From Tubulanus polymorphus (Eukaryota > Animalia > Nemertea), in assembly GCF_964204645.1 (NCBI RefSeq), contig NC_134036.1, forward strand, positions 9,651,859 to 9,715,858: a stretch of 64,000 bases of DNA. Reading direction: 5' to 3'. Each line of letters begins with the position of its first letter. Within the stretch, counting starts at the first letter, position 1. A program made the translations under genes and the position numbers. Below the pieces are notes generated by a model. It had not been told where the DNA came from and ran no database searches. It was given only the letters and a program-made list of their open reading frames with translations. Positions 11,326 through 48,949 of the stretch are shown here, in pieces.

Positions 11326-12401
11326 CAACTTCTGGCTGGTGCTAAAACTCTATCTGGCTGGTGCCCTAGCTACTGTCGTAGCTATCTTGTGTAAATAGTA
11401 TTGTTTGCTTCTCGTGGATGACAATCTAGATGACAACTTCTCTTATAACTACTGTTGAGGAACCGATTATAATCAAATGCTTCTTGATGATGGGCGCCGA
11501 TGAGCGAATTTGAATGAAACAACTCCCCTTTTCTAAAGAAGAAAAATAAGTTACTATTGTGACTTTTGTATGGGCAACTTAGCACGACAGCGATTAACAC
11601 ACGGACCACCGAAGGAGAATATTTGATATAACGGCGTTATGTTTTCTATCCAAAGTCAGGCATTCATTTCGTTCAATAATCACACAATTTCTCCCGTTCA
11701 AAGCGTTACAAATTAGTCCAATCTATTCTTCATAGCATTAGATTAAAATGTCCGTCGTTTAAATTGTAGAAGTACTTAGATTGTATTTCGTTACTAGACA
11801 GTATGATATTTAACACATTATCAATCATAAATCACTCGCTATCAACAACGTATGTTATGTACATGTAATGTACGTACAGTCCACCTTCGTTTATGTTCCG
11901 AATGCCGTGTTATATATAGGAACCGAAACCGAACACTATGTATAAATGAATCGCTCATTAATTTTGCATGAATTACCCCCTTCTCTCTCCCCATTTATCA
12001 CCCTCCACCCCCTCTCTCTCCCTTCTCATGTCTGGGCAAGCAAATTCAGCGTCACTGAGAGTAATAGGAAAAGTAGGCTTTCATACCAGAGGTCGTGAGG
12101 TCGAGACACCCCTCATCACCACAAGTAATTTTTTCCCCTAATAAATGGCAGATAGAAAAGCATTCTTAGCAACAATTAATAACAGAATTAAAACAGCAAA
12201 AAACAATTTGAAATAAAAAAGTTAGTTGACGTTACAAAAGAAATTGAACACAAAATATTGAAATTAGAAAAGATGAAAACTAAATATGGAGAGAAAGTAT
12301 CAGCAAATTAAGAAATAAAAATAAGTTTAGAAAAATTAATTTTTTTTTGCTTTTTCCAAAAATAAACAAACTTTTAAGCGCTAATAAAATGATAAAATTG
12401 T

Positions 12402-12800
12402 TCAATATTAAAAGTGTGAGCAAAGTGTGAGTAAAAAAAGTTCGATTTTCAATATTAAAAGTGTGAGTAAAATAAGTTAGATTTTCAATATTAAAAGTGT
12501 GAGTAAAGTGTGAGTAAAATAAGTTAGATTTTCAATGTTAAAAGTGTGTGTAAAGAGTGAGTAAAATAAGCTAGATTTTCAATATTAAAAGTGTGAGTAA
12601 AGTGTGAGTAAAATAAGTTAGATTTTCAATATTAAAAGTGTGAGTAAAGTGTGAGTAAAATAAGTTAGATTTTCAATGTTAAAAGTGTGTGTAAAGTGTG
12701 AGTAAAATAAGCTAGATTTTCAATATTAAAAGTGTGAGTAAAGTGTGAGTAAAATAAGTAAGATTTTCAATATTAAAAGTGTGAGTAAAGTGTGAGTAAA
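12402..12800. repeat. Minisatellite, ~47-bp unit (gattttcaatattaaaagtgtgagtaaagtgtgagtaaaataagtta), about 8 copies
   Basis: Directly visible tandem array. Confidence 0.9.
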
Positions 12801-12815
12801 AATTTTGCTATATAA

Positions 12816-13513
12816 ATGAAAGAAATGGAATTTAAAATTGAAATAAAAGAATTTAATGAATTATTTTCACTATTTAAAATTAAAAATTGTATCTCAGCAA
12901 AAAATCTAGTGTATGGAAGACGATATAAAATTGATAATATTACTGTAATTAATCAAATATTATTAAATGAAACATATTTAATTACCGATCTAATAGATAC
13001 TTTAGATAATGGTGCCAAAAATCCTAAAATATTTAATACAGTTTTCAATTATAAAGGTTATTTAGATGAAAACATAATAAATATTCTTAAATTTCCTTTT
13101 AATGAAAGAGAAAGTGATATAATACTTTCAAAAGGTAATGATAGGATAGACTTAAGAATTGAAAAACGACAATTATATTATTGTAATTTTGATAATAAAC
13201 AAATTATTTATAATGAAAATACATCAAATATTGAAATTCAATGTGATTTAGAAAAAACTATAATTCTTTTAAAGATATTGCAATTCAATGTGATTTAGAA
13301 AACAATAATTCTTTTAAAGATATTGCAATTCAGTGTGATTTAGAAAATAGTAAATCTTTTAAAGATATTGCAATTCAATGTGATTTAGAAAATGAATTCA
13401 AAAGATTTAATCCTAATGAAAAAATTCATTGTTATTGCGGAGGTAAATATTCAAAATCACAAAAATCAAAGCATTATCAAACAAGTAAACATAAAAACTG
13501 GTGTAAAGAGTAA
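12816..13513 (+). pseudogene. Polinton-like hypothetical protein whose C-terminal zinc finger is detached by a ~44-bp tandem triplication
   Basis: ORF 12816-13298. The unit attcaatgtgatttagaaaa...aaagatattgca repeats at ~13237-13392. Downstream reads NEFKRFNPNEKIHCYCGGKYSKSQKSKHYQTSKHKNWCKE* (CxC...H...H finger). Confidence 0.55.
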
Positions 13514-13584
13514 CAATTCTACATTAAAAATGAATTAAATATTCAAATAATTATTGAATTAAGTTAAATGATTTAAATATCTAA

Positions 13585-14412
13585 TAGACTGTTAAAATGA
13601 TAATTTGTCAGACTGTTAAATCATAAATTGTTAGAATGGTAAAATGTTAAATTGTTAGACTGTTAAAATGTTTGACTGTTGAAATGATAAATTGTTTGAC
13701 AGTTGAAATATTAGATTGTTAGACTGTTGAAATGTTAAATTGTTAGACTGTTAAAATGATAAATTGTTTGACTGTTAAAATGATAAATTGTTTGACAGTT
13801 GAAATGATAAATTGTTTGACTGTTGAAATGTTAAATTGTTTGACAGTTGAAATGATAAATTGTTTGACAGTTGAAATGTTACATTGTTAGACTGTTAAAA
13901 TGATAAATTGTTTGACTGTTAAAATGATAAATTGTTTGACAGTTGAAATGATAAATTGTTTGACTGCTGAAATGTTAAATTGCTAGACTGTTGAAATATT
14001 AAATTGTTAGACTGTTGAAATGTTAAATTGTTAGACTTAAAATGATAAATTGTTTGACTGTTGAAATGTGAAATTGTTAGACTGTTAAAATGTTAAATTG
14101 TTAGACTGTTGAAATGATAAATTGTTTGACAATTGAAATGTTAGATTGTTAGACTGTTAAAATGTTAAATTGTTAGACTGTTGAAATGATAAATTTTTTG
14201 ACTGTTGAAATGTTAAATTGTTAGACTGTTAAAATGTTAAATTGTTAGACTGTTAAAATGATAAATTGTTTGACAGTTGAAATGTTAAATTGTTAGACTG
14301 TTAAATTGTTAGACTGTTAAAATGCTAAATTGTTCGACTGTTAAAATGATAAATTGTTTGACTGTTGAAATGTTAAATTGTTAGACTGTTGAAATGTTAA
14401 ATTGTTTGGCTG
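13585..14412. repeat. Minisatellite, ~24-bp unit (aaattgttagactgttaaaatgtt), more than 30 copies
   Basis: Directly visible tandem array with variant units. Confidence 0.92.
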
Positions 14413-14531
14413 TAAATTTAATTGTTATTTGATTTAATCATTTAAAAGTTTAATATTTTAAAAATGATTATAAAACATTTAATAAAAAACTAGCAAATAT
14501 TTATTAATTTTCTAATTTCTTTCTTAAATAA

Positions 14532-14762
14532 ATGGATGGTTTCATTCCAACTGGGAAAAGTGATTTGAAACATTATCTTGTAGCAGGAGGATTAATATCG
14601 GCTGCGCTTTATTTATACTATGAGAATATTAGTAAGGATTTGATGAAAGAAAATATGAAGTTGAGCAAGAAATTAAAGAAGTTAAATACTAAAAACGGAA
14701 ATAATCATAAAAACGGTAATAATCACAAGAAAGTTGTTGAATCAGATAAAGAAGGGAATTAA
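14532..14762 (+). CDS. Small membrane protein (TM helix plus basic tail), Polinton-like
   Basis: Starts in ATAAATG; hydrophobic segment YLVAGGLISAALYLYY. Confidence 0.45.
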   Translation: MDGFIPTGKSDLKHYLVAGGLISAALYLYYENISKDLMKENMKLSKKLKKLNTKNGNNHKNGNNHKKVVESDKEGN

Positions 14763-15069
14763 TCTAATAAAATCTTTTTCTAATGAAATGAATGAAAATA
14801 TATTAAATTTGTTAAATCTTATTTACAGAAATCAAGAGAAAATGAAATTAAGTATGATGATTTCAGGGTTACTTTCCTTTTCAGTTTATAGTTTGAAACA
14901 ATTGTTTCATTTTTATGATGATTGTAAAATAAAATATATTGAATTGAAAAATAATATCAATTACATTTCAGATAGAATGAATAATATTAAAAGATGTGAA
15001 ATTTGGAGTAAAAAATACAAGACGGAAAAAGGATTTAGAAATCATAAATTCAGGCATAAATTAGAATGA
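14734..15069 (+). CDS. Hypothetical protein with a hydrophobic segment and a degenerate C2H2 finger
   Basis: C-terminus CEIWSKKYKTEKGFRNHKFRH resembles CxxC...H...H with one Cys lost. The start codon is uncertain. Confidence 0.35.
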   Translation: MLNQIKKGINLIKSFSNEMNENILNLLNLIYRNQEKMKLSMMISGLLSFSVYSLKQLFHFYDDCKIKYIELKNNINYISDRMNNIKRCEIWSKKYKTEKGFRNHKFRHKLE

Positions 15070-15211
15070 TTAAATGAAAAATCAAAGTAAAGGAATGAAA
15101 AATCAAAGTAAGAAAATCTCATTTATTGTGTAAAATTGAAATAATTTGAACTACAACTAAAATTAAACTAAAATAGACAACTTTGTTAATCTAATGAATT
15201 TTTAGTTATAT

Positions 15212-15353
15212 TTTTGTTGAATTGTAATTAAAGTTAGTTGCAACTATCTTCAACTAGAATTTAACTAGAATTGAATGAAAAATAAAAAAGATTAACAGGC
15301 CAGTTAATTTAGTGAAGATAGTTGCAACTAACTTTAATTACAATTCAACAAAA
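15212..15353. repeat. Perfect 41-bp inverted repeat with a 60-bp spacer
   Basis: 15212-15252 ttttgttgaattgtaattaaagttagttgcaactatcttca is the exact reverse complement of 15313-15353. Confidence 0.9.
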
Positions 15354-33898: not shown

Positions 33899-34890
33899 TC
33901 AAACAAGCCTTTTACACTTTTTACAATGTCGAGTGTTATCTTGACTGATGTAAAAGCCACCACACTCGCATTTTCGTTTCGTTGCTTCGGATTTTGGTGG
34001 TTTTGTCGCGTAAAGACCTTGATTGATGAATAGATATTTAGTTCGCAGAACTTGATCACGGACTGTACAGTAGATTCTGTTGTCTCTGTTCACGCTTGCG
34101 TGTTTACCTTCAAGTCATTGCTCACCGAAGAGCCCCAGAGAACCCCACATATCAACAAAATCAGGAGCGTGGTAAATAAGTATATGGAGTTTTGGCGTGA
34201 TAGTGGAACTAGGAAATGCGTCGGTGTAAAATCGTCCGAAATCATGACACAGTTTACGGAATAAGGACTTTTCATCTGCTGTGAGAAATCTACATGCCGT
34301 GTATAGCGCATATAAGTTACTAAGTCTCTCGAATAGCTCGAGAAATTTCGTGTAATCATCATCAGCATGACCTGAGAGAACACTACATAGTTTCTGTGGA
34401 TTGTTGGATTTGTCATCATTTTTGAGCATTTTATTTATATAGTTTCCAACAATGCAACCACCATAGTACGCTTGCCGATCAATACCTATTTCGGCAAGAA
34501 TTTCATTTAGCCGTTTTGTAACCGGCCCCATTGATGAATTAACAACTTTGAATATTTCCTGTAATTGGTTTTGAGCTTCAGACAATCTCGATTTTAGATC
34601 AGCTAACTCAGATTTCTTTTCCGATATTTCTTGAATTTTCAGCTTGATAATATTATCCGCTGACATAGTTTTCCCCGTACAACATTCCATACATTTGAAA
34701 TTAGCTGTAGGTCCAAATATACATTGCTTGTGATAGGGGGAATCGCAATCAATGCACTCAACAAAATCATTTTGTTTGGCATTCGGAATGTTTCTAATCA
34801 AACAAATCTTTGCTGAACAACTAATAACACAACGACCCTTTTTTGGATTGTTTTAGAAGGTCAACAGTTTGATTAAGAGTGACAATCATT
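33899..34890 (-). pseudogene. Second, diverged RAG1/Transib-related transposase (copy B); C-terminal part only, cut off at the Polinton junction
   Basis: CSAKIC..VECIDCDSPYHKQC..FKCMEC, EIGIDRQAYYGGCIVGNY, ITPKLHILIYH, LFGEQ*LEGKHASVN and KCECGGFY..HCKKC are all colinear with copy A. One in-frame TGA. Confidence 0.85.
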
Positions 34891-34995
34891 TCCTTGTACT
34901 ATATTTTTTATTAAAATTGATTTTAGAAGTTCCATGATTTAAATGTTATTCATATATGTGAATATTTTAAGAGTAATAGGGATAATAGGCTTTCG

Positions 34996-35595
34996 TATCA
35001 ATTTTACTATAACATATTACAACCCCATTTTGGAGAAAAAAATATAGAAATATTATATCTAGATACTGACAGTTATATATTAAAGATAAAAAGTGATAAT
35101 ATAAATGATGATTTAAAAATATTAAATCATCATTTTGATTTCAGCAATTATCCCAAAGATCATGAACTATTTAGCAATGATAATAAAAAAGTTCCTGGGA
35201 AGTTTAAGGATGAATTAGGTGGTGAAGAAATGATAGAGTTCATTGGTATTAGATCTAAAATGTATAGTTATAAAACTAAAGAACATGAAGCTAAAAAGTT
35301 AAAAGGAATAACCAAAAGTGTAGTAGAAAAGAATATTCATTTCAAAGATTACATCAATTGTATATTTAATGAAGAAGTTAAAAAACATAAGATGAAATGT
35401 TTAAGATCTGAAGATCATGAAATATTTATTGAAGAAATTGAAAAGATAAGTCTAAACCCATTTGATGATAAAAGATATATTTTAGATGATGGAATCCACA
35501 CAGTCGCCTATGGTTGCAATTTAGATGAATATATAAAATTCAAAAGAGAAGAAACAAAAGAAAATGAAATTATGAAAAGGATTCTAACGTGTTAA
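34996..35595 (+). pseudogene. Protein-primed family B DNA polymerase, C-terminal third only
   Basis: YQFYYNILQPHFG..IEILYLDTDSY..FDFSNYPKDH.LFS..NKKVPGKFKDE..EFIGIRSKMYSY..KKLKGI..KISLNPFDDKRY. Confidence 0.93.
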
Positions 35596-35623
35596 TAAAT
35601 TTCAATAAAAATTTGTATAATAA

Positions 35624-35965
35624 ATGGAGAGTAAACAAGTACACAGTGAATTCTTAGATAGAATTAAAGATACCACAAATGTAAAATCTGTAGATTATAA
35701 ATTCAAAAAGTTAACAGAATTAACAATTCACAAGAAATATTTAATTACTAACATTGAAACAATTACTAATAAATATGGAGATAAATTAGTAATTCATTTA
35801 GAATATGAAGGATTAAAAGGAAATAAATATAAATTCAGAACTTATTTACCAGATAGATTTCATAGATTATCAAGTGAAGATCTAGAAGAATTATGTTCTG
35901 GAGATTTCTATTTCGTATACAAAGGTAAGAATGAAAAAGGGCACCATGAAATAGATTTCGAATAA
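35624..35965 (+). CDS. Small Polinton protein, possibly an OB-fold ssDNA-binding protein
   Basis: Intact 113-aa ORF with TAAATG start, directly after pPolB. Pattern FKKL..L..KKY.I..TNKYG..L...YLPDRF. Confidence 0.6.
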   Translation: MESKQVHSEFLDRIKDTTNVKSVDYKFKKLTELTIHKKYLITNIETITNKYGDKLVIHLEYEGLKGNKYKFRTYLPDRFHRLSSEDLEELCSGDFYFVYKGKNEKGHHEIDFE

Positions 35966-35982
35966 GAAAATATGTAAAATAA

Positions 35983-36741
35983 ATGGCGGAATTAAAAGAA
36001 TACAGAATATTTGTTGATTCTAGAAGGCTTACAAATTATAAATCACATAATTTACTAGTACAATTAGATAGAGAATTTAAGAATTGTGTTGATTTAAAAT
36101 TAGTAAATATAAGTTTATGTAATTCTTTTTACAATGTATCGGATAAGTCTATTGAACATAGAGTCTTTTTAATTTATGATAGAAATAAAAGTAAATGGTT
36201 TCATCTTTATCTTAAACCAGGATTATATAATTTAGAAACATTAGCTCAAGAAATTAATAGAAGAGCTCGGTTGAAAATGGGTGCATCTGCTGGATTTGGA
36301 TTAAGACTGATTAAAAGTGATAGTTCTGATAAAATAAGAATAAAATTAGGTAATGAAGATCAACATCAATTTCTAGTTAAAAAACCTTTAGCTAAAATTT
36401 TAGGAATAACCCCAGATGTAAGGATACGCAATGCTGATGCTACACCAAATATAATGCCTTTTACACATTTTTATATTTATTGCAATTTAATCGATCCTAC
36501 AAAAACATTCGAAGCAACTAAAGATATAACTTGTAATTCTGGTTTACTAAACATTTTACCATTGAAGAATGTTAAAGAATTTGGAACGCAAATAAATTAT
36601 AATTTAACAGAATGTGATTTCAAACCATGCATTCCTCGTTTTAATAATTTTAGATTAGAAATTAGAAATCATAATGGATACTTAATTGATTTAAATAATT
36701 TCCCTGTAATTTATGAATTAGTTATAAGATGTAGAGAGTAA
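35983..36741 (+). CDS. Minor capsid protein (penton)
   Basis: IFVDSR...NSFYNV...LKPGLYN...YIYCNLID...LLNILP...LEIRNHNGYLIDLNNFPV, the pattern of Polinton/PLV single jelly-roll pentons. Confidence 0.75.
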   Translation: MAELKEYRIFVDSRRLTNYKSHNLLVQLDREFKNCVDLKLVNISLCNSFYNVSDKSIEHRVFLIYDRNKSKWFHLYLKPGLYNLETLAQEINRRARLKMGASAGFGLRLIKSDSSDKIRIKLGNEDQHQFLVKKPLAKILGITPDVRIRNADATPNIMPFTHFYIYCNLIDPTKTFEATKDITCNSGLLNILPLKNVKEFGTQINYNLTECDFKPCIPRFNNFRLEIRNHNGYLIDLNNFPVIYELVIRCRE

Positions 36742-36755
36742 TTTTTGATATATAA

Positions 36756-37097
36756 ATGAATATAACTGTTGGACCGAGTATATGTTTTGGGTTTGATTTT
36801 AAACATGGTAAAGAAATGAGAATTAAACTAAATGATGTAATTACTGATATAAAAAGTAAATCATTTAACAATGCATCAATGATTGATAAAGAAAAGTATA
36901 ATATAGAAAAAGTAATTGATTTAATTAAATCACCTTTAGAATATTATGAATTAAATGAATATGGAATTATTGATGATATTAAAAACATATTATCCAAAAT
37001 ATATGATAATCATAAAACTAGTAATAAAATAAATGTTGAAATAATCATTACTAAGTTAACTAAATATTTTGATGATAGTAATTTTTTTGATAAATAA
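36756..37097 (+). CDS. Hypothetical Polinton protein
   Basis: Intact ORF with TAAATG start, tightly packed. Confidence 0.6.
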   Translation: MNITVGPSICFGFDFKHGKEMRIKLNDVITDIKSKSFNNASMIDKEKYNIEKVIDLIKSPLEYYELNEYGIIDDIKNILSKIYDNHKTSNKINVEIIITKLTKYFDDSNFFDK

Positions 37098-37319
37098 ATG
37101 AGTGATAATAAGTGGATAATAACTGGATTATATAATGGCGCATTACTATCAGTTGGAACTGTTGGTTATTCAATGGTATTAAAAAAAGTATTCAAAATGG
37201 GAAGTGTTAATGTTGATAGATTTGATATAAATGATATTTTAAAGTTAACATTAGCAGTTACTTTATCTAATTTAACTATTGATTATTTGGAAAAACAAAA
37301 ATATATTCCTCCCATATAA
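37098..37319 (+). CDS. Small hydrophobic Polinton protein
   Basis: Abuts the upstream stop (TAAATG); two hydrophobic segments. Confidence 0.6.
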   Translation: MSDNKWIITGLYNGALLSVGTVGYSMVLKKVFKMGSVNVDRFDINDILKLTLAVTLSNLTIDYLEKQKYIPPI

Positions 37320-37343
37320 ATGTGTAATTTTTTTGTTAAATAA

Positions 37344-37766
37344 ATGGCTTCTGCAATTATAACTATTATAGGATCAGCAATTGTTAACGCTTTAGCATTT
37401 ACTGGTGGTGGATATTTATTTAAACATATTGATAAAAATAGTTCATTAGGAGAACAAAGAAGACATAACTTAGCGTTAGAGAAATATAATAAAGCTGCAG
37501 AAGAATATAGAGAAAAGAGACAAAACTATATGGATTACATCAATAAAGAATTATATGATCAGAAGATTTCACACAGAGATTTTCAATCAGTTGATGATGC
37601 AATGAGTTTATATAACGCAGTAACCAATAAAGAAAAATTACATCTATACAAACCTAAATTATCAGATTATTATACCCCAAGTAAAGAACAACAGAAATAT
37701 GAAATAATATGGATTTTAGGTGGAACAGTTATTGTTATATTTGTTGCTTATAAGTTTACTAATTAG
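37344..37766 (+). CDS. Membrane protein with N- and C-terminal hydrophobic helices and a central coiled coil
   Basis: MASAIITIIGSAIVNALAFTGGGYLF...RHNLALEK...IIWILGGTVIVIFVAY. Confidence 0.7.
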   Translation: MASAIITIIGSAIVNALAFTGGGYLFKHIDKNSSLGEQRRHNLALEKYNKAAEEYREKRQNYMDYINKELYDQKISHRDFQSVDDAMSLYNAVTNKEKLHLYKPKLSDYYTPSKEQQKYEIIWILGGTVIVIFVAYKFTN

Positions 37767-37785
37767 TAATTTTTATTCTAAATAA

Positions 37786-38214
37786 ATGGAAGATAAAGTT
37801 GATAGTATTGATATTATTCCTCATGATATAAATAAAACTAAATTAAAAACATATTTAGAAAAACAAATATTAGAATTTGAAAGTGACTTAAAGATAAAAA
37901 AGAAAAAATATTTAAAAAGTAAAATTATATATTATTTAATTATAAGTGGTTCGGTTACAATTAGTTCTGTAATAAAATTTTTAGCAATATTTAGCCCATT
38001 AACACCTTTAGCTATATCAATTGGTGTATTAGGATTAAGTTCTTTAACCGGTATAAGTTCAAAATTAAATATAAAAAGTAATAAAGAAAAAATTAAAACT
38101 AATATAAAAGAAATTAATAAATTAAAGAACACACTAGATTATATAATAAGTTTAAATGGTCATATAACAGTTGAAGAACAAGATAAATTATTAAAAGAAT
38201 TAATAAATTATTAA
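37786..38214 (+). CDS. Two-TM membrane protein
   Basis: Central hydrophobic hairpin flanked by Lys-rich coils; TAAATG start. Confidence 0.65.
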   Translation: MEDKVDSIDIIPHDINKTKLKTYLEKQILEFESDLKIKKKKYLKSKIIYYLIISGSVTISSVIKFLAIFSPLTPLAISIGVLGLSSLTGISSKLNIKSNKEKIKTNIKEINKLKNTLDYIISLNGHITVEEQDKLLKELINY

Positions 38215-38230
38215 TTTTTTAATTATATAA

Positions 38231-39619
38231 ATGGTAGATAGTTTTCCAAAAGCTTTCCAATATAATAAATCAATTAAATATAATATTCCAGCAATAGATT
38301 TTAATAATGATATTACATATAGAAATGAAGTTTTAGATTCATTAACTAATTTAGAAATTTATGTTACTGAAACTAATAATTTTAATGCAAAGATGGAAAA
38401 TATATTTCATATATATTTAATTAATTTTAAAAAATTGAAAGATGAAAAACAATGGTTATTAAAATCTAATATGAAGTATTGGCAGAATCAATTAAATTTT
38501 GCTGTTTATTGTGCAACAACAGGATGTGGAATAAGTTGGAATGATCATTTGAATAATTCTAAATATAAACTAATTCAAAGTTTATTTAGATTTCATACAT
38601 ACTTTCAAATCAGAATAATATTAAATGAATTAGAGTGCGCTTTACCAGGATCTAGGTATTTCAAAGAATTAGATAATAATATTAATTTATCAAAGTTTTA
38701 TAAAATTTGTAATGAATTTAATATAGATATAAATAATTCTGATTTTAGAACAAAAATTGGAACAATAAGATCACTTCCTTGCCCTAGAAAGATTGCAGAA
38801 TATTGTGCACTTCCCATACCATCTAATAGTTTTTATAATATCTATAATAAAAAATTAGGTTATGGTAAAATAGAAACAAAGGATTTAGAAACATTAAATT
38901 TCAATAAATTACCGAAATTTTATGATAATTTAAAACAAGAAAACAATAATGGTTGGGTTTATTTTATTTTAGAAAATAGTGAAGGTTTTACTAAATCAGG
39001 TATAGAAAGAATAAATCAATCTATTAGAACTTATTTGATTTGTATTCTAGGATCACAAGTTGAAACAAGATCCCCGATAATTGGAAATTTGAATACATCA
39101 TTCGATACACAAAAACAATTTAAAGTTTTATTTGAAGATTCCATACATAATGATAAAAATAGATCGATTCCAGAAAACATTATAAGATATCAAAATTATT
39201 TAGATAAATCTCATGTAAGACTTAATTATTGTATAGGCCCTAATCTATTAATTATTTCTAATGATTTAGTATTAAAGATGGGAAACATAATTGGTTATAA
39301 TAATCTAATTAAAACTGCAACAATAAATAATTCATTTGGATTGAATGATATAAATAAAAAGATTATTACTGCTCCAAAATTAATGGAAGGTGAAAAAAAT
39401 AAAAAACACATTCAATCAACAGAAACTAAAATTAAGAATATTAAATTGGTTAATGATTCTAAAATAAAAGATTACAATACATCAGAAAATAATAGAACTG
39501 ATACAATTCAACATGATATAATTAAACTAAATGATGATAATAAATCCCATGAAAATACTAAATTAGCTATAACTTGTATAGGAATTGTAATCGGAGGAAT
39601 ATTATATTTTAAATTTTAA
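38231..39619 (+). CDS. Conserved-looking Polinton protein of unknown function with a C-terminal TM anchor
   Basis: Intact 462-aa ORF; WQNQLNFAVYCATTGCGISW.DHL...FRFHTYFQIR; ends LAITCIGIVIGGILYFKF. Confidence 0.75.
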   Translation: MVDSFPKAFQYNKSIKYNIPAIDFNNDITYRNEVLDSLTNLEIYVTETNNFNAKMENIFHIYLINFKKLKDEKQWLLKSNMKYWQNQLNFAVYCATTGCGISWNDHLNNSKYKLIQSLFRFHTYFQIRIILNELECALPGSRYFKELDNNINLSKFYKICNEFNIDINNSDFRTKIGTIRSLPCPRKIAEYCALPIPSNSFYNIYNKKLGYGKIETKDLETLNFNKLPKFYDNLKQENNNGWVYFILENSEGFTKSGIERINQSIRTYLICILGSQVETRSPIIGNLNTSFDTQKQFKVLFEDSIHNDKNRSIPENIIRYQNYLDKSHVRLNYCIGPNLLIISNDLVLKMGNIIGYNNLIKTATINNSFGLNDINKKIITAPKLMEGEKNKKHIQSTETKIKNIKLVNDSKIKDYNTSENNRTDTIQHDIIKLNDDNKSHENTKLAITCIGIVIGGILYFKF

Positions 39620-39635
39620 TTTTTTTATTATGTAA

Positions 39636-41102
39636 ATGGATGTAGAAGGTGAAGAAGATTATTAAATGGGAGAAATGGGAAATAATAATGAAGGATATAT
39701 TGATGATGATTATAATGATGCAGAAACTAATATTGATAATAATGATGAATCAGCATATAATTCTAATTAAGCAGATAGTGGTTCTAAAGGTCAATCAACA
39801 GATGAATTTGATAGAAGAACTAGATCGAGAATAAATCCTGAAAATGAAAATCCAGATTTAGTAAAACAAAATTTAGAATATAATGAATTTATGTATGATT
39901 TTCAACATGTATTTAAAGATTCTGGATATAATATAAATGCCAGAGGCGCTAGACTTTTAGTACAAGAATTAAAATTTTTAGATGGTGAATATTATTATCG
40001 TTTGAAAGATGATTATTATATTGATATCTCTTATAAAAAACAAAACAAAATATTAGCAGAATCAACTTTGCTTAAGTCTGACTCATTACTATCTAGAATT
40101 AAGAGAATAAGAAATAGTAATGAAATAGAAGATGTAACACAAGAAGAAATTTTTAAAAATGAAAGAGTATTTAAACAAAGAATTAATGAATTATTTGAAA
40201 CAATCGATAATAATTTAGAAACAGAAACAACTTCTGAACAGAATATAACTTCCAAAACTAGTAAACTTAAATCAAACACTGAAGTTCAAACTGAAAAACT
40301 TTTACCGAATGGATTACTTGATGCAACAGATCAAGAAATAGAAGCTTTAAGTATGTTTTCTAAAAAAACAATTTGAGAAATAATAAGTATACGAGATGAA
40401 GCTGATAAAATTGCTCGCGAAAAACATATTAGATATAATAAAATTAAACCTTTAGAAAATAAATTATTTGACACCAGAAAAGAATTAGAACAATTAAAAT
40501 TAGATAGAGAATTTAAAGTTATTGAAGAAATTGAATTTAAAAAAAGAAATGCATATTTAGAAAAAGAAATTGATGATTTAGAATATAACATAGAATTTCA
40601 GAAAGAAAAAATGAAATTATTATTAAAATCATACGATTATTGTATTAATAGATTAAAAGTTGTTGTTAAAGAGTTAATACTAAAACCAAATTCTGACATA
40701 TCATTAAAAGATAGAATAAAATTATTATTTTAGTTTGAAGGAATAACAATTCTTTCAATTCTAACAGCTGTAACTATGTTATTTACAACAATTGGTTTAG
40801 CTATATCAAATGCTTTAAAATCTACTCCTACTCCAAATAAACCAGATAAACCTCCAGGTAATAATTCTATACAAGATAAAGTTAAAGATGGTTTAAAGAA
40901 ATTAGCAAAATATTTATGGGAACTATCTAAAAAATCTGCTGCAGCACTACCAGGAGTTATTGCTTCAATTGTTGGTTTTGTTTTAAAATCTGCAGGTAAT
41001 ATTCTTAACTTTGCTGCTGAACATATTATTTTATTTTTAATCACAGTTGTAAGTGCTATTATTTTTGGGTTAGTAAATATGATATCAAAAAAAATCAAGT
41101 AA
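39636..41102 (+). pseudogene. ~488-codon acidic/coiled-coil protein with C-terminal hydrophobic helices; four in-frame stops
   Basis: ATG at 39636 (TAAATG) and ORFs 39891 and 40776 are in the same frame. Stops TAA, TAA, TGA and TAG, with no frameshift. Confidence 0.75.
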
Positions 41103-41144
41103 ACCATGATAAAAAATAAATAATTAATTTTTTTTGTTAAATAA

Positions 41145-42392
41145 ATGAGTGGGAGTTATATAAGTCCTTCTAAGATTTCTAGAATATCTAACGCTATTAA
41201 AGCAGAAAGATCACATCATATAATTACTCATAACCCTTCAAATATTAATCCTGATGAAACTTTATACGTTAGAATCCCTCGATTAACACAAAATACTTTT
41301 TATGTTCCAAATAGTATTTATTTATCAGCTGATATAAAAGTAATCGGTAATAATAATAATTATGTCGTTGATAATGTTGGAAGATATTTGATTAAAAAGT
41401 TAACAATAAAGATTGGTCCAGAAACAGTTTTCTCATTAGATGATTATAATTTATTTATGCATTATAAAGATTTATGGTTAACTAAAGAAAACAGAAATAA
41501 TATGATATTTCAAGGAATTCAATCAGAAAACCAAAATAAATTAAGATCAGAAGCTAATAGCGCAATATTAACAAATGATGTAGATAAATTGATAAAAAGT
41601 ATATATGGAAGCAAATATAAAATTCCATTAGACTTTGAATTGATAAATAATAATGCGCCTTTATATAAATACGCAATTCAAGAAGATATTATATTTGAGA
41701 TAACATTTGCTCTTGTAAATGAAATTGTAATGTCTAGCGTTAATAAAGATATGAGTTATAAATTATCGAATATATGTTTAGAATATGATACAGTAACTGA
41801 TGAAAATATTGCTAGAACAATTCAAACTCAATACAATCAAGGATTTTCATTATTATATGATTATATTGATAAATTTAAAACTGTAACTATTAATGCAAAT
41901 GATGAAATAATAAATGAGAATATTAACTTTCCTAGAAGATCTATTAAAGGTATATTAATATTTTTTACTATTGGAACGTATACTAATGGCGCAATAAATG
42001 TTGATAATTATTATAATCCTGAAATAACAAAAGTAGAAATAACTATCGAAGGTATAGCGAATAAAGTATTTTGTCAAGGAATGAGAATGATTGATCAATG
42101 GGTAGAAATTAAAAAACATTTTATGAATGAAAAAGTAAAATCATTTGAAAATTGTAACATTAATCAAATTGACTATTATACTGGTAATAAATATGCATTA
42201 TGGTTAGATTTTAGAACAACTGAAGATAACTTATTACATGGTTCTGGAAAAAAACTACAAAACACTAAAGATGGAATACAATTATTCATGACAAAGAAAA
42301 AGGGAATCAAAAATTTTTAAATGCACATTTATATTATATCTGACGCGCAATTAAATATTGTAAATTCACAATTAGATAGTGTTATGTATTAA
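41145..42392 (+). CDS. Major capsid protein (double jelly-roll) with a premature in-frame TAA near the C-terminus
   Basis: Size, position and beta-rich pattern (HNPSNINPDETLYVRIPRL...VVDNVGR..IKKL..Y.IPLDFE..YNPEITKVEITIEG..LWLDFR..LHGSG). After TAA at 42318-42320 the frame continues MHIYIISDAQLNIVNSQLDSVMY*. Confidence 0.75.
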
Positions 42393-42424
42393 AATTTTAA
42401 CTTTAATAAAAATATATATAATAA

Positions 42425-43396
42425 ATGGAAGGAGGTAAAGTATATAAACATATTCCATACATCGATACACATGAAAATAATGATGGTTTATATTATGTAA
42501 TACCTTGTAATATAGCTTTGATATTTGATCCTATTTTTAAAAATTATAAAACTAAACTGATAGAAATCAATAATAATAAAAGTGGTGTTGTTAATAATAG
42601 TGTAATTGATAATAATGTAATACCTACTACACCTGTAATACCTACTACATCTGTAATACCTACTACTACATCTGTAATACCTTCTACATCTAATAACGTA
42701 ATACCTTCTACATCTAATAACGTAATACCTACTACATCTGTAATACCTACTACATCTAATAACGTAATACCTTCTACATCTAATAATGCAATAATATTAA
42801 ATGTTAGTGAAAATAGAAATTATTGTGGTTATTGTAATGGTGAATTTTCAAACGCTCCATCAAATTGGAATAAACATATGAATACAAATTCACATATTAC
42901 TAATGTTATAGAACGTGTTGGTTTAAGAGAATTTATAGAACACCCATTTAGATATGTTACAAAGTTTGTTTCAAATAAAAAAGTAAATGGTGAAAAAATA
43001 TATGAAGATTTATTATTAGCAACACCTAATAAAGATGAATTAGATTTAACTGATGCTAATGAAATATTAGGATCAAACACTGTAGATGAAATATTAGGAG
43101 CAAACACTAATAAAGATGATAATGAAAATGATGCCATACACCCACATGATGATATAGTTACAGTTAAACATATTGATAATAAAGATTCTATAAAACTTAA
43201 AGTAGAAAATAATGATAAATTTGATTGGATGAATAAGTTTAAAAATGAAACAACTATTGGTGGTGTGGTAAAAAAGGTGAAAAAGGTGAAAAAAAATTAT
43301 AAAGATGTTGGTGTAGATTCGGTAGAGCATTTAAATATGTTGTTAGCGTCTGATAGTGAAAGTGATTCAGAAATTGATTATCTAAAACTCGAATAA
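42425..43396 (+). CDS. Protein with VIPT(T/S)SNN repeats and a C2H2-type zinc finger
   Basis: Coding tandem repeats at ~42612-42790; YCGYCNGEF....NWNKHMNTNSH. Confidence 0.7.
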   Translation: MEGGKVYKHIPYIDTHENNDGLYYVIPCNIALIFDPIFKNYKTKLIEINNNKSGVVNNSVIDNNVIPTTPVIPTTSVIPTTTSVIPSTSNNVIPSTSNNVIPTTSVIPTTSNNVIPSTSNNAIILNVSENRNYCGYCNGEFSNAPSNWNKHMNTNSHITNVIERVGLREFIEHPFRYVTKFVSNKKVNGEKIYEDLLLATPNKDELDLTDANEILGSNTVDEILGANTNKDDNENDAIHPHDDIVTVKHIDNKDSIKLKVENNDKFDWMNKFKNETTIGGVVKKVKKVKKNYKDVGVDSVEHLNMLLASDSESDSEIDYLKLE

Positions 43397-43462
43397 TAAA
43401 GGTTGAAAATTGTATAAAATAATAGTAAATAAAAAAAGGGTTTTAATTATTTAAGGTATCTA

Positions 43463-43560
43463 ATAGGGTATCAGGTATTAGGGTACCAGGTATTAGGGTA
43501 TCAGGTATTAGGGTATCAGGTATTAGGGTATCAGGTATTAGGGTATATAATAGGGTATCT
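43463..43560. repeat. 15-bp tandem repeat (ggtattagggtatca) between the convergent gene blocks
   Basis: Directly visible, about 5-6 copies. Confidence 0.85.
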
Positions 43561-43581
43561 AATACATAGGTATACAAATAG

Positions 43582-44196
43582 TTATTTTATAAATTTATAT
43601 TCATAAGGAAATTGTAATCTCAGTAATAATTTTGAACCTTTATTATTTTTTAATTTATTCATATATTCATCATGTAATTCAGTAGGTATAATTTGATTTT
43701 CTTCCAATGATTGTTGCATAGATTTTCTATCTTTGTTGTAGAATAAAACTAGAAATCTTATATTCTCTCTAAAATCTTTCACAATTGAATTATATTTCTG
43801 ATTTAAAACCCAAGTTGTTATCCCAAAATGTCTTCCAGAGAAAGCTAAATAACATAACTCACTTTCTCTAATTTTAGAATCATGTAAATTTGCGCAATCA
43901 TCAATAATAAATAATGTATTTGATCCTTTATAAATATCTAATACAATTTTTATACAATTATCTAAATTTTCTTTTACTGTTTTAGGGTCTAATATAATAA
44001 ACTTTTTTATCTTAACTATATCTCTATTATATGTTTTATTCATTTCATATGTAGGACAGAATAATATTATATTATCAAAATGATTTTTATAAATAGTTTC
44101 TAACAAGTCTAATATGAAATGTGTTTTACCACAATTTGTAACTCCAGTAACTAAGTTCAATGTATGTGGTTCAAATATAAATAAATCTTTATTCAT
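43582..44196 (-). CDS. A32/FtsK-like DNA packaging ATPase
   Basis: Walker A GVTNCGKT, Walker B FIIDD, SGRHFGIT..LNQ. Confidence 0.92.
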   Translation of the reverse strand: MNKDLFIFEPHTLNLVTGVTNCGKTHFILDLLETIYKNHFDNIILFCPTYEMNKTYNRDIVKIKKFIILDPKTVKENLDNCIKIVLDIYKGSNTLFIIDDCANLHDSKIRESELCYLAFSGRHFGITTWVLNQKYNSIVKDFRENIRFLVLFYNKDRKSMQQSLEENQIIPTELHDEYMNKLKNNKGSKLLLRLQFPYEYKFIK

Positions 44197-45277
44197 TTAT
44201 TCTTTTAATTTTACTAGATAAAATCCATTCATTAAATTTATCATCATATCCTTTATATTTCACCAAAGAATACTTTTTTCCTTTAAGAGTTTTTGTTTTC
44301 AATACTTTTTCTATTTTGTATTCTATTTCATCTGGATTTGGTACTAATGATAATTCTTGTTCATAAAAATAACCTAATATTTCTTCATCTTTTAAATCTT
44401 CTAATTTATAAACAAATGGTTTAGTTAATATTATCTTTTTAATTTTAAATATTTCTTCAGTAAAATTAGGGGTATAACCTTTATAAAATGTTTTTCGATA
44501 TTTAGAAATTCTAACGTGTTGTCCTATTTTAAATTTAGGTTCACCGAAATCGTGTGTAACAAATGCTCCATATAAATTATTCCAAACTATTTCCGAATTA
44601 TCTTCTTGTCTAGCTTGTATGGGTTTCATATTTATAGAACTATGTTTAGAATTATTATAACCTTTCACTAAATCATCTAACACATCGATATATTTATATG
44701 TTTCATTAGCGGTGAAATATTTCCACATTCTAGTTTTCAATGTTTTATTAAATCTTTCTATAACAGATGCTTTTTTATCTGAATGTGTTGAAAAATATTC
44801 TACATCGTTATCAGTTAATAGTTTTTTAAAATGTTTGTTATAAAATTCTTTACCTTCATCAAATTGTATCTTATCTGGGATAGCTTCTTTGAATATAGAT
44901 TTAAAAGCATTTGTTACTTCTATACCAGTTTTATTTTTAATCGGGATACTCCATGCGTATCTACTGAATATATCTATAACATTCAGTATCCAGAAATATC
45001 CTTTGTTATATTCTTCTAAGTTTTTCATATCAATTAAATCAGCTTGCCATTGTTGGTCAATATATGAAACCATAACTTTTCTTGTTAAATATTTTTTATC
45101 CATCTTTTTATGAATTTGATATGTGGGTTGATTTTGTAACCATGATTTTAATTCACTATATTTTATATCACTATTATCGGATTTAATTTTATTCCATAAT
45201 TCTGAAACGTTAGAATATGATACTTCACTTTCTGGGTTATAATATAAATCTCTTAAATATTGTTCTTTTTTCATCAT
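44189..45277 (-). CDS. Retroviral-like (rve, c-int) integrase with a C-terminal chromodomain; intact
   Basis: WQADLIDM (D), IDIFSRYAW, QFDEGKEF (D), ERFNKTLK (E), YNNSKHSSI; chromo-like YKIEKVLK..YSLVKYKGY...NEWI. Confidence 0.95.
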   Translation of the reverse strand: MMKKEQYLRDLYYNPESEVSYSNVSELWNKIKSDNSDIKYSELKSWLQNQPTYQIHKKMDKKYLTRKVMVSYIDQQWQADLIDMKNLEEYNKGYFWILNVIDIFSRYAWSIPIKNKTGIEVTNAFKSIFKEAIPDKIQFDEGKEFYNKHFKKLLTDNDVEYFSTHSDKKASVIERFNKTLKTRMWKYFTANETYKYIDVLDDLVKGYNNSKHSSINMKPIQARQEDNSEIVWNNLYGAFVTHDFGEPKFKIGQHVRISKYRKTFYKGYTPNFTEEIFKIKKIILTKPFVYKLEDLKDEEILGYFYEQELSLVPNPDEIEYKIEKVLKTKTLKGKKYSLVKYKGYDDKFNEWILSSKIKRINE

Positions 45278-45280
45278 ATT

Positions 45281-45640
45281 TTAATCCATCAATAATATTT
45301 TAGATTTATTTTCATTTGACTTATTTTCTGGTGGTTTATTGTCTGTACATGGATAACTAAGTTTCCGATCATCTTTATCGTCAGATTTGAATTTTGATTT
45401 GTATATTACACCGGATAATATAATAACTGTTACTAACCCAATTGTAATATATAAGTAATTATTTCTTCCACTATTAGAAGAATTAGATGGATTATTATTT
45501 GAATCAATACCAGGTGATTCATTTATATCAGTTAATTTCTTTTTCTTAGCTTTTTTTAATTCTGAAGATCTTTTTCCTAATTCTCTTGCCCATTTAAATT
45601 GTTTCTCGGATCTAGCCTTTTTCTTAACTCCATCACTCAT
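45281..45640 (-). CDS. Basic single-TM protein
   Basis: Lys-rich N-terminus and YLYITIGLVTVIILSGVIY; overlaps the upstream gene end at TAAATG. Confidence 0.65.
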   Translation of the reverse strand: MSDGVKKKARSEKQFKWARELGKRSSELKKAKKKKLTDINESPGIDSNNNPSNSSNSGRNNYLYITIGLVTVIILSGVIYKSKFKSDDKDDRKLSYPCTDNKPPENKSNENKSKILLMD

Positions 45641-46241
45641 TTATTTTTGTCAATTTTTGTTCTGATTCATCTTCTGTTTCACTGTTTGGTTGTAGTACAG
45701 CGTCATCTGTTTCGTTCTTACCTGATTTATATTCCATAGGCTTGATATTCGAAAATGTTATAACTCCAGTAGAAATCAATGTCATAACCGATCCTAATTG
45801 AAATGAAGCATAACCGACCCATTTTTGTAATTCAGTCATAACTAAGTAGTCATTTTTCAAATCACTATATAATTTATTTTCATCATTAATTGGCATTACC
45901 TGGTTACATAACTTAGAATAACATTTGATAATACCATCACTTATAGAGTCGTTTATTCTAGCTAATCTTGACTCTTCATAAATCTTAAAATATTTAATTA
46001 CTTTATCGGGTTTCATAGAGTCTAGTTCTTGAAAAGTTATTATTTTTCCTAAGAAGTCCTTAGATTTCCCGCCAGCAATTAATAATTCAAGATGATGCTT
46101 ACAATATAAATAGTATTCATAATCTATATTGTTATTAACTTGAGCACAATTAGTTGCAACTGTATCTTTATTATCACTTATACCCAAATCATCTAATGTC
46201 TTTTCAATATCAATACTATTCTTATTAGATTTCTTTGACAT
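45633..46241 (-). CDS. Hypothetical Polinton protein
   Basis: Intact 202-aa ORF with TAAATG start. Confidence 0.7.
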   Translation of the reverse strand: MSKKSNKNSIDIEKTLDDLGISDNKDTVATNCAQVNNNIDYEYYLYCKHHLELLIAGGKSKDFLGKIITFQELDSMKPDKVIKYFKIYEESRLARINDSISDGIIKCYSKLCNQVMPINDENKLYSDLKNDYLVMTELQKWVGYASFQLGSVMTLISTGVITFSNIKPMEYKSGKNETDDAVLQPNSETEDESEQKLTKINE

Positions 46242-46652
46242 TTATATTAGAGAAAAAAAGCAAAAAAAATATTATAAGTATTCTTCAAATGATACTAGCT
46301 AGTTAAAGCTAAAGAATTCTAGTATTAGTTATTGTTTTTTTAGTATTTTTTATTTGTGATATAAAGTATTCTTTTTGAAAAGAAAATATTAAAAATATAA
46401 TAGAATTCACTAGCTAGTTGAAGTTATTGTTTTTTTATTATATTTTATCTAAATTCTATTTGATATCACCATGTGGGTGCCGTACGGCACCATCTCACTA
46501 CTTTTGTTTATCTATAGGAGCAGTAACTATAACTGTCCAGATAAGTCATTTCGGATTCTTGATGATAAATCCTAAAACTGAAAATAAATTCAAAGAAACG
46601 ACTGGTGGAAATATTATTTCATAAACACATATATTTATTATGTAAATTTTAG

Positions 46653-46817
46653 CGATCAATAGTAGAACAATGGAGAACAATAGAAATGCGGTCCAATCGG
46701 ACCGGTTATTGCGCAATACTTAGTTATATTTTTATTCTAACAACGATCAATAATAGAACAATGGAGAACAATAGAAATGCGGTCCAATAGGACCGGTTAT
46801 TGCGCAATACTTAGTTA
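46653..46817. repeat. Duplicated ~75-bp module (period ~91 bp) with palindromic motifs
   Basis: cgatcaata.tagaacaatggagaacaatagaaatgcggtccaat.ggaccggttattgcgcaatacttagtta occurs twice. Confidence 0.85.
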
Positions 46818-46892
46818 ACAGTAAACAATACAATATTAAAACAGATATATACAATCGAGATTTTTGATATCTAAGACCTTCAGTATTATAAT

Positions 46893-47309
46893 TTATAATT
46901 TTGTCCAGAATTCTTTAATTACTGGATTGTTTCCAATCATTTCTTCAATTTCTGTTAAATGTCTTACTACTTCACTAAATGCTAATCCTAATATTTTGAA
47001 TTTTTCATATTTTATTAATCTACCTACTCTTCTCAGTTTTCTTTCAAAACCAGCACTGATATCTCCACTCATTTTCTTAGTTTTCGATTCTTTGAGTCCC
47101 AACAGCAATTTGAGTCGCGTTGCTGGTAATTTTGGTAATTGTAGTTCGCGCGGTAATTGTTTATTATGTATTACATCACTCAGAGTTTTCACCATTTCTT
47201 GATGATAGTCAAAATGTTCTTGTAATGTTTGTGAAGTTTGTTCGTCAATTACGAGAGTTTTATCCTCCATTTCTATTGATTCCACTATCCAGTAGCAATC
47301 GTTCCTCAT
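46893..47309 (-). CDS. Hypothetical protein; may be the 3' part of a longer or spliced gene
   Basis: 138-aa ORF without the TAAATG context. Confidence 0.4.
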   Translation of the reverse strand: MRNDCYWIVESIEMEDKTLVIDEQTSQTLQEHFDYHQEMVKTLSDVIHNKQLPRELQLPKLPATRLKLLLGLKESKTKKMSGDISAGFERKLRRVGRLIKYEKFKILGLAFSEVVRHLTEIEEMIGNNPVIKEFWTKL

Positions 47310-47700
47310 CCGTTGGTTGGCTTAGAATTTCTGGTTGATCTCTGTATTCCATTTTAATCTAAAAGATGTCGTGAAAATGAATTACTATACTTAAATATGT
47401 TTAAAGGTTTCCCTACTTCATAATAACTACAAAAAACGGTACTTACATTTAGATTTAGAACTGTAAACTGTGTTTTGAGAGAGAATATCCAATACGTACT
47501 ATGTATGTGAAAGTTGATTTCTAACTGCCGACGTGGCGCACGTTCGACCAAACTAATTACTTCTGCACAGATGTTCTTTATGATGAAGTTAATTAATTCT
47601 TTAGAATTGAAAACAAGATATATTTGGCAACATATGTTTTAGTAGTAAGCAAAAGCTATGTATTATATACATACAAAGCTCAAATAGAATTGCCAGCTTT

Positions 47701-48369
47701 CTAACCACTGATCAAAACCTCAGAATGCGGTTGATTATGTGAAATACTATTCCATAATTCAACAAATGTCTTTGCTTTATCCAGTTGATCTAAATATAAC
47801 TGTAAATCTAGTTTATTGGATTTAATAATGTTTTCCTTCTTTTCTAAAGGTCTTAGATTCTTCCAATTCCAAATAAGTTTTTTATTGTATTCATCATTCA
47901 TGTCAAATTTAGAAATCGGCAACACGCGATCAATATGAAAGTATTCACCATAATTATCTATATTCATTTTATCATCGAATTGATATATTATCCATGATTT
48001 GAGAAATTCATCTGAACAACCCAATAGATTAGATAGTGTTTCTGAATGTGTTTCTTTGTTGAATAATTGTGTTATTCTAGTCCTTAAGCATTGTTTCAAT
48101 CTAAAATTAAGATCTGTTTGATATCTTTCTCTCATATATTTTGTCATATAATAATTATAATGTTTTATATTATCTTCTCGATATTGTTTGGTGTATAGTT
48201 TAGCACAAGTTTTACAACAATTTTGAAAACCATCTTTGCTAATCTTACGCTTACTAAATTCTGTTATAGCTAATTTATCTAATTCACATTTAGAACACTT
48301 CTTGTAGTATATGTTTATAACGCCAGTGTTATTTGTAATATTGATAGTTTGTGGTTGTTCTGGTTCCAT
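47701..48369 (-). CDS. Zinc-ribbon plus HNH-like endonuclease of the type common in large DNA viruses (NCLDV)
   Basis: KKCSKC...F.K..CKTC, LRTRI...LLGCS..FLK.WI..QF...NYG..HIDRVLP...WNWKNLRPL..EN..KSNK. Confidence 0.7.
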   Translation of the reverse strand: MEPEQPQTINITNNTGVINIYYKKCSKCELDKLAITEFSKRKISKDGFQNCCKTCAKLYTKQYREDNIKHYNYYMTKYMRERYQTDLNFRLKQCLRTRITQLFNKETHSETLSNLLGCSDEFLKSWIIYQFDDKMNIDNYGEYFHIDRVLPISKFDMNDEYNKKLIWNWKNLRPLEKKENIIKSNKLDLQLYLDQLDKAKTFVELWNSISHNQPHSEVLISG

Positions 48370-48448
48370 TTATTATACGTATTTTTTTACTAAATTGGTT
48401 AATAATTTTAGAATCCTCTTCCATTTCTTCGACCAACGTCATCCTTTT

Positions 48449-48688
48449 TCATTCCTCGCTGCTTTTGATAAGTTCTTTCGATTCCTTGATATCAAATTCC
48501 TCAACGTATTGTTCATTATTTGGGTCATTATTCCATAATTCAATAAATTTCTTTCCCTTTGTTAACTGTTCTGAATACTCTAGTTTCAATTTATTCTCTA
48601 AATGTGTTATAGTTTTATTGTGTCTTGCTTTTTGAGACTTGTCTATATCGATATTACATGTTGGGCAGTAGTATTTATTTGCTTCCAT
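48449..48688 (-). CDS. Small zinc-finger protein
   Basis: YYCPTCNI....KARHNKTITH. The frame continues beyond the TGA, so the stop may be premature. Confidence 0.55.
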   Translation of the reverse strand: MEANKYYCPTCNIDIDKSQKARHNKTITHLENKLKLEYSEQLTKGKKFIELWNNDPNNEQYVEEFDIKESKELIKSSEE

Positions 48689-48768
48689 TTTAATACTATA
48701 TTTTTTATTAAAATTGATTTTAGAAGTTCGATGATTTAAATGTTATTCATATATGTGAATATTTTAAG

Positions 48769-48949
48769 AGTAATAGGGATAATAGGCTTTCGTATCAAAG
48801 GTTGAAGGGGCGAGTGAGTAAAAATGAAAATAATAATTTATAGTTGAATTAGGAGTGTGCGCGACTAATTCAACTGTAAATTATTATTTTCATTTTTTAC
48901 GAGCTCGACCGTTCGACCTTTGGTATGAAAGCCTATTATCCCTATTACT
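48769..48949. repeat. 181-nt imperfect terminal hairpin at the Polinton right end
   Basis: Arms of ~84 nt. The outer 23 bp are perfect (AGTAATAGGGATAATAGGCTTTC / GAAAGCCTATTATCCCTATTACT). 12-nt loop gagtgtgcgcga. Confidence 0.92.

Follow-up and report, generated by a model that had tools for sequence, protein, structure and literature searches.

The locus described here raises the question of which RNA polymerase reads the genes of an animal Polinton. Within a stretch of 64,000 nucleotides (nt) from Tubulanus polymorphus (contig NC_134036.1, positions 9,651,859–9,715,858; hereafter the window), the region 34972–48949 is an integrated, multi-copy and damaged Polinton/Maverick element. It forms an island of 25% guanine plus cytosine (GC) in host DNA of ~37% GC, and we detected in it genes for an rve integrase, an A32-like ATPase, a double-jelly-roll capsid, a penton and a remnant of the polymerase. 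A first-pass annotation had proposed that nearly every gene of this element starts in a motif like the poxvirus late promoter, and that the element may be a virophage-like parasite of a pox-like cytoplasmic virus. Our analysis indicates that these genes probably start at a signal read by the polymerase of a large DNA virus serving as helper; such a promoter is well supported because of its resemblance to known viral promoters and because ordinary explanations were excluded. Whether the element is a virophage-like Polinton using the RNA polymerase of a pox-like cytoplasmic virus is an evenly balanced matter: a pox-like helper is favoured, not settled, and is a best guess rather than a result.

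With the A of ATG numbered +1, TAA directly precedes ATG at all 14 starts named in the first-pass annotation, and the three T-run examples quoted there are exact. TAAATG occurs at 14 of the 16 tested gene starts as opposed to 32 of 492 other ATGs in 34972–48949 (Fisher p 3.5e-14), and shuffled 40-nt upstream regions predict only 1.4/16, which bears out the suggested enrichment over base composition. When 17 genes are considered, the three that do not open with TAAATG carry the variants TAAAATG (47352 and 48688) and TAAAAT-ATG (the integrase, 45277). The full motif is T-N8-TAAATG, since T is found at -12 in 14/14 starts as against 9/32 non-start TAAATG sequences. The claimed T-run near the start is present at eight of the 14 starts as a run of at least five T ending near -12, whereas the other six have an A-run instead. 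Likewise, the short gaps reported between genes apply to the plus-strand block (0–42 nt) and not to the right-end genes, which are 79–651 nt apart. The genes appear to be intronless, judging from uninterrupted open reading frames (ORFs) that match those of relatives. The genes and their start contexts are as follows (aa, amino acids; pLDDT, predicted local distance difference test).

34972..35595, plus strand: protein-primed DNA polymerase B, C-terminal remnant, 44–46% identical to long polymerase ORFs of loci L020 and L023; start outside the window
35624..35965, plus strand: 113-aa protein with a homologue in L001; TAAATG start, upstream A-run
35983..36741, plus strand: minor capsid (penton), model pLDDT 82, top fold match mavirus penton (E 1e-11); TAAATG start, upstream A-run
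36756..38214, plus strand: four small genes of 113, 73, 140 and 142 aa starting at 36756, 37098, 37344 and 37786; all TAAATG with T-run
38231..39619, plus strand: conserved 462-aa Polinton protein with 25 homologues among the fetched loci; TAAATG with T-run
39636..41102, plus strand: broken gene, 53% identical to a 485-aa ORF of L001; TAAATG with T-run
41145..42320, plus strand: double-jelly-roll major capsid, model pLDDT 84, fold match E 2e-11; TAAATG with T-run
42425..43396, plus strand: repeat-containing protein of 323 aa that weakly matches a zinc finger; TAAATG with A-run
43582..44196, minus strand: A32-like packaging ATPase (PF04665, E 1e-9); TAAATG with A-run
44189..45277, minus strand: rve integrase with chromodomain (PF00665, E 2e-9; PF00385, E 8e-5); start context TAAAAT-ATG
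45281..46241, minus strand: two genes, 119 aa from 45640 and 202 aa from 46241; both TAAATG
46893..47352, minus strand: gene frameshifted near 47283, recognised through its homologues; TAAAATG start
47701..48369, minus strand: Endonuclease VII/HNH-like protein (phrog_1035, E 2e-14); TAAATG with A-run
48449..48688, minus strand: 79-aa zinc-finger-like protein; TAAAATG start

The polymerase remnant itself had no direct Pfam or PDB match; the L023 polymerase protein matches PF03175. The small genes of 73 and 140 aa are kept across the family. The fold matches listed for the capsid are giant-virus capsids, and its sequence relatives are Polinton-like. The family scan detected no adenovirus-type cysteine protease among the proteins of the window, where the left part of the element is missing, and protease families were also not found in the 19 outgroup ORFs scanned.

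The same motif defines starts in the relatives of this element. Of 175 capsid loci confirmed in a metagenome scan, we compared the best 80, together with three from a genome scan; a collection of viral contigs yielded no capsid relatives. A quick capsid tree, built from the 56 of 84 sequences whose capsid ORF aligned over 300 residues, places the window, L001–L013 and L014 in a clade of 15 rows (Shimodaira–Hasegawa-like approximate likelihood-ratio support 99). In L001–L013, 50 of 56 ORFs begin with TAAATG and 47 of those 50 carry T at -12; with the 14 window starts this amounts to 61/64, including 20/21 in loci of 30–44% GC. Among conserved starts aligned through homologues, TAAATG occurs in 53/58 of the clade (20–44% GC) vs 0/186 in four outgroup sets. 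These sets cover 43 of the 69 remaining loci and leave out near-duplicates, short loci and seven TAAATG-bearing loci. These seven are L032 and L070 (partial, 52–58% capsid identity), L080 (a long-branched locus that falls outside the clade) and L046, L049, L052 and L056 (not in the tree). Given the TAAATG starts of these loci, the motif may be present in more than one lineage. The upstream A-run or T-run class is mostly preserved between close orthologues, and a deoxynucleoside kinase at L001:10340-10981, an accessory gene, has a T-run TAAATG start as well; a homology search with this kinase returned no named virus among its matches.

Two further observations concern the outgroup. Its AT-rich Polintons L017, L018, L020, L024, L025, L054 and L082 open with AAAATG, not TAAATG, and the element in L043 has a 1209-aa helicase-like (AAA_30) protein at 9967-13596, the usual place of the polymerase.

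The motif could also belong to an autonomous nuclear element transcribed by host RNA polymerase II (Pol II), as a lineage-specific initiator, a translation context or an overlapping AATAAA polyadenylation signal in a compact, AT-rich genome; we consider this explanation improbable. The Kozak rule predicts a purine at -3. The clade has T at this position in 54/58 starts, opposing the purine of 154/186 outgroup starts, and we therefore excluded the Kozak context as the source of the motif; the baseline here is the starts of outgroup Polintons and not the host's own genes, which leaves some room for the Pol II explanation. AT content was rejected as the cause, given that GC-richer relatives retain the motif and AT-rich outgroups are without it. 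An overlap of stop and start codons was likewise discounted, as TAA serves as the stop of the upstream gene in only 2/63 cases, and so was a splice acceptor, with AG within 12 nt of the start in only 7/64. The polyadenylation signal fares somewhat better: AATAAATG stands at 33/64 starts, and AATAAA is found at that same number. It is, however, missing at 31/64, and the motif also opens genes without an upstream neighbour on the same strand. Inside genes AATAAA does not discriminate, with 50 observed vs 45.6 expected in the window and no depletion in outgroups either. The presence of the elements in a nuclear genome, the chromodomain of the integrase and the existence of ribbon-worm gene models for one right-end gene all agree with Pol II transcription; that gene is 47352(-), the closest named homologues of which are Tubulanus polymorphus gene models at 69–93% identity. 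Compactness was dropped as an argument against Pol II because outgroup Polintons are just as compact. Against this explanation, the fixed 8-nt spacing to the T is promoter-like, and a TATA box abutting the ATG would, by Pol II geometry as set out in passages of PMC5294985, place the start site within the gene.

A promoter read by a large-virus polymerase has described counterparts in poxviruses. According to passages of PMC11980589 and PMC5294985, TAAAT(G) marks the start codon in vaccinia late promoters and is preceded, ten bases upstream, by a conserved T amid other Ts; in intermediate promoters, TAAA follows an A-rich stretch. The TAAA initiator is read by the polymerase of the poxvirus itself (as given in part of PMC12917281), and a fish poxvirus has TAAATG at many conserved genes (as given in part of PMC4542343). 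Our own counts agree with the vaccinia descriptions: TAAATG opens 130/343 and 61/190 ORFs of chordopox-like loci, with a T peak at -13/-14. The corresponding values are 34/68 in entomopox-like loci, 16/57 in metagenomic pox-like loci and 27/316 in other large-DNA-virus loci. Among the fetched loci, L247 matches a named entomopoxvirus helicase without differences; the other virus group labels are inferred from homology. The Polinton clade shares with poxvirus intermediate and late promoters the TAAAT(G) over the start codon and a T/A-rich tract one helical turn upstream, as well as the TAAAATG and TAAA(A)T-ATG variants and tight head-to-head gene pairs. It differs in that its conserved T lies one base nearer (-12 vs -13/-14) and is stricter, and in an added preference for A at -6 and -4. 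The tract spans -15 to -12 in the clade, where T occurs at -13 in 46/64 starts and peaks at -12 in 61/64; the orthopox value at -13 is 8/10, and the T peak of the poxvirus locus L279 is at -12/-11 (7/9). The late-promoter likeness claimed in the first-pass annotation thus stands for a real, clade-conserved motif with a two-part layout, and is qualified by the T at -12, an overlap with iridovirus-like promoters and a split verdict of our classifier.

Among metagenomic pox-like contigs, L301, L249, L252 and L268 have TAAATG at 4–7 starts each; in L301 a type II topoisomerase and a match to G9/A16 (entry-fusion) were also identified. Public data contain many divergent pox-like helicases, with no virus name attached to 16 of the 20 looked into, and an as-yet-unseen helper is therefore plausible.

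Several observations weigh against a pox-like helper. Neither a transcript 5' end nor a helper virus or particle was observed, and no poxvirus-derived gene was present in the window or the clade ORFs scanned; Pfam likewise revealed no poxvirus RNA polymerase subunit in the ORFs scanned with it. The near-invariant T stands at -12 instead of -13, and no poxvirus group in the sample holds it so strictly. Profile correlations differ little between groups (chordopox 0.53, iridovirus 0.43, entomopox 0.27–0.41). Starts that are orthologous between relatives cannot be counted as independent. An assignment of A-run promoters to non-structural genes was rejected, as the penton is A-type and the capsid is A-type in L008, L012 and L013. 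Furthermore, invertebrate-iridovirus-like loci open 45/99, 34/87 and 37/117 of their ORFs (~40%) with TAAATG, a frequency similar to that of poxviruses. A classifier applied to whole promoters calls just 8/14 window promoters and 32/47 relatives pox, and positions -6 to -4 assign 10/14 window promoters to iridovirus. The core alone (-22 to -7) does favour pox, the classifier returning pox for 13/14 window and 37/47 relative promoters, but on the core it also called 46/115 iridovirus promoters pox; it has two pox classes vs one iridovirus class and errs often. Lastly, outgroup Polintons are, like the clade, compact and without hairpins.

In an equally helper-dependent alternative, the helper is iridovirus-like or another nucleocytoplasmic large DNA virus (NCLDV), a candidate that we hold to be unlikely. 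The first such locus, L095, surfaced unexpectedly in the motif scan; from its Pfam content we take it to be invertebrate-iridovirus-like. AA at -5/-4, found in 32/61 Polinton starts, 17/139 chordopox starts and 111/115 iridovirus-like starts, brings the clade nearer to the iridovirus-like group, and TAAATG is also seen at 3/6 and 7/16 starts of L157 (NCLDV capsid) and L109, respectively. The L001 kinase had only iridovirus-like matches among the viral loci compared, at 30% identity. The detailed layout argues in the other direction. Iridovirus-like TAAATG starts are strictly AATAAATG (44/45, 32/34 and 36/37), and about half of them at most have T at -12; the strict form accounts for 32/61 starts in the clade vs 111/115 in the iridovirus-like loci. 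A at -9 is found in 82/115 of the latter vs 24/61 in the Polintons. Iridovirus-like genes end in hairpins and are separated by long gaps, and the Polinton clade is without both: 3' hairpins follow 13% of 70 clade genes, 60% of 70 iridovirus-like genes and 3–11% of pox genes. The spacing of head-to-head TAAATG pairs is 19, 28 and 30 nt in the Polintons, 15–27 nt in pox and at least 50 nt in iridovirus-like loci. The early terminator TTTTTNT, for its part, is depleted in the clade (19 vs 48.6 expected) and not in the window (6 vs 6.6); A5 runs are depleted too, and poxvirus central regions show little TTTTTNT depletion, which weakens this comparison.

Taken by themselves, the iridovirus-like loci L095 and L205–L239 show the strict AATAAATG at ~40% of ORFs, often with A at -9, and hairpins at the ends of ~60% of genes. 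Our literature search found nothing relevant on iridovirus TAAATG promoters or on poxviruses of marine invertebrates.

A sister group of Polintons provides a second case of a start-proximal signal. In L057, L068, L016, L015, L074 and L072, TATA (often TATAG) lies at most 22 nt from the ATG in 20/24 starts, against 5.2 expected. This signal is similar to the late initiator of asfarviruses, which is TATA (as given in part of PMC7163114). Weak matches to the late transcription factor Pox_VLTF3 were present at L057:6543-7052 and L068:5082-5579 (E 6e-4 and 4e-5, too weak to pass the cut-off). Together, the TATA signal and the VLTF3-like matches may offer family-level backing for a helper-promoter mechanism.

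The mechanism that we propose is as follows. T-N8-TAAATG would be recognised as a promoter by the RNA polymerase of a large cytoplasmic DNA virus infecting the same cell, most likely a pox-like virus, and the element would propagate at the expense of this helper in the manner of a virophage. The helper polymerase would initiate in the AAA of TAAAT and slip, producing a poly(A) leader that puts A in place of T at -3 on the mRNA. A-run starts may represent an intermediate-like and T-run starts a late-like promoter class, giving two temporal classes. The integrated copy would remain mostly silent until helper infection and then replicate, be packaged and re-integrate; this waking is modelled on mavirus-type elements as described in parts of PMC8547959. 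The model would require the nuclear copy to gain access to a polymerase located in the cytoplasm, and protection of the host by the element is speculation. More broadly, and tentatively, the animal Polintons of this group might be endogenous virophages, with every clade matched to the late promoter of its own large virus: the TAAATG clade to a pox-like virus of marine invertebrates and the TATA(G)/VLTF3-like sister group to an asfarvirus-like one, with copies that wake on infection as inherited antivirals.

The condition of the element bears on whether the motif is still in use. Raw DNA reads (run X7) leave the element at 48949/48950 into dissimilar flanks (1320 and 482 reads), and read depth is 250–1580 within the element vs 45–70 in the adjoining flank; the family therefore occupies many insertion sites. 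The right end, AGTA...TACT, is backed by these reads, whereas the left end is truncated and rearranged, and no target-site duplication was found in the flanks of this rearranged element. The ends and a related element are given below.

48769..48949, no strand: terminal palindrome of 181 nt, AGTA...TACT (-69.9 kcal/mol, z -19.9), the read-confirmed true end of the element
34897..35001, plus strand: 105 nt that repeat 48694-48798 in direct orientation and take in the terminal sequence's first 30 nt; unlike a normal left end, this copy is not inverted
12060..15353, plus strand: non-autonomous relative with the same terminus and T-N8-TAAATG starts at 12145, 12816 and 14532; right boundary approximate

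The motif might accordingly be the relic of a helper-dependent ancestor, with present copies spreading otherwise or all dead, an explanation that we regard as very unlikely. The window copy retains little of its polymerase gene and is damaged in three others, with in-frame stops at 39663, 39768, 40374 and 40731 of the 39636 gene, a stop at 42318 that leaves the capsid shorter than its relatives of 414–415 aa, and the frameshift in the 47352 gene; most X7 reads are 90–99% alike and not identical. Yet the motif is intact at 14 starts and is kept across relatives of 52–77% capsid identity and 20–44% GC. It is found also on accessory genes such as the L001 kinase, and the family has many insertion sites. 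The retention of the motif in relatives and on accessory genes argues for continued selection.

Further observations concern the copies and their surroundings. Shorter variants of the 181-nt palindrome are present among the reads, and 686 reads match only the outer ~63 nt of the terminus, which is therefore used by other elements too. The non-autonomous relative also holds 47-bp and 24-bp (base-pair) tandem arrays and a 41-nt perfect inverted repeat. Contigs of runs X1–X4 span nearly the whole element in many variants, and transcript ends are not resolvable from them. Those of X4, unlike X1–X3, are far deeper over 45500–48690 than elsewhere in the element; this excess, which may stem from RNA or short derivatives, does not count as evidence of expression. 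Of two related transposon-like genes of the host, one lies at 28853–31617 and matches DUF1280, and the other, at 34115–34852, adjoins the rearranged left end of the Polinton. Fragments at 21039–23287 on the minus strand resemble the reverse transcriptase and endonuclease of a retroelement and may derive from one.

A clade-specific promoter of helper type bears on the nature of animal Polintons, which may be autonomous viruses, transposons or parasites that exploit larger viruses. If our reading is true, some lineage of marine invertebrates should harbour a pox-like virus, endogenous virophages of the mavirus style would exist in animals as well as in protists, and start-codon motifs could forecast which large virus each Polinton clade exploits. 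We found no description of the TAAATG/T-N8 motif in Polintons in a literature search whose coverage mostly excluded subscription journals. The word 'promoter' is absent from the main text of PMC8502044, and neither the main text of PMC11296320 nor passages of bioRxiv 10.64898/2026.10.13.758929 contain an analysis of promoters.

In gene content, the element resembles the Polintons and adintoviruses described in parts of PMC8502044, with which it shares the protein-primed DNA polymerase B (a remnant here), rve integrase, A32 ATPase, double-jelly-roll capsid, penton and multi-copy presence in an animal genome. The adintovirus set in that source includes an adenovirus-type cysteine protease; we found none here, and the T-N8-TAAATG starts are specific to the present clade. 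Polinton-like viruses of entomopoxviruses (portions of PMC11296320) are likewise Polinton-related and linked to poxviruses, and two of them are divergent members of a Maverick/Polinton capsid clade. Compared by description, they differ in residing in occlusion bodies, in having an adenovirus-type protease and in having a tyrosine recombinase or no integrase. Mavirus and the endogenous mavirus-like elements (EMALEs) of Cafeteria, according to parts of PMC8547959, are also integrated and intronless, carry rve integrase and protein-primed polymerase genes and have a start motif proposed to be read by a large virus, with EMALE types differing in motif. They have a protist host, Cafeteria roenbergensis virus as helper and a TCTA motif, as opposed to the animal host, Polinton-type capsid and putative helper of our element. 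PgVV Gezel-14T (portions of bioRxiv 10.1101/2022.07.28.501842) is a Polinton-like virus with giant-virus-dependent transcription and a common promoter motif; its host is an alga, its motif is the early mimivirus-type AAAATTGA at five genes only, and it encodes a tyrosine recombinase. Mavirus-type EMALEs and PgVV, as represented in these sources, share promoters with their helpers and thereby set a precedent for a Polinton promoter read by a helper virus.

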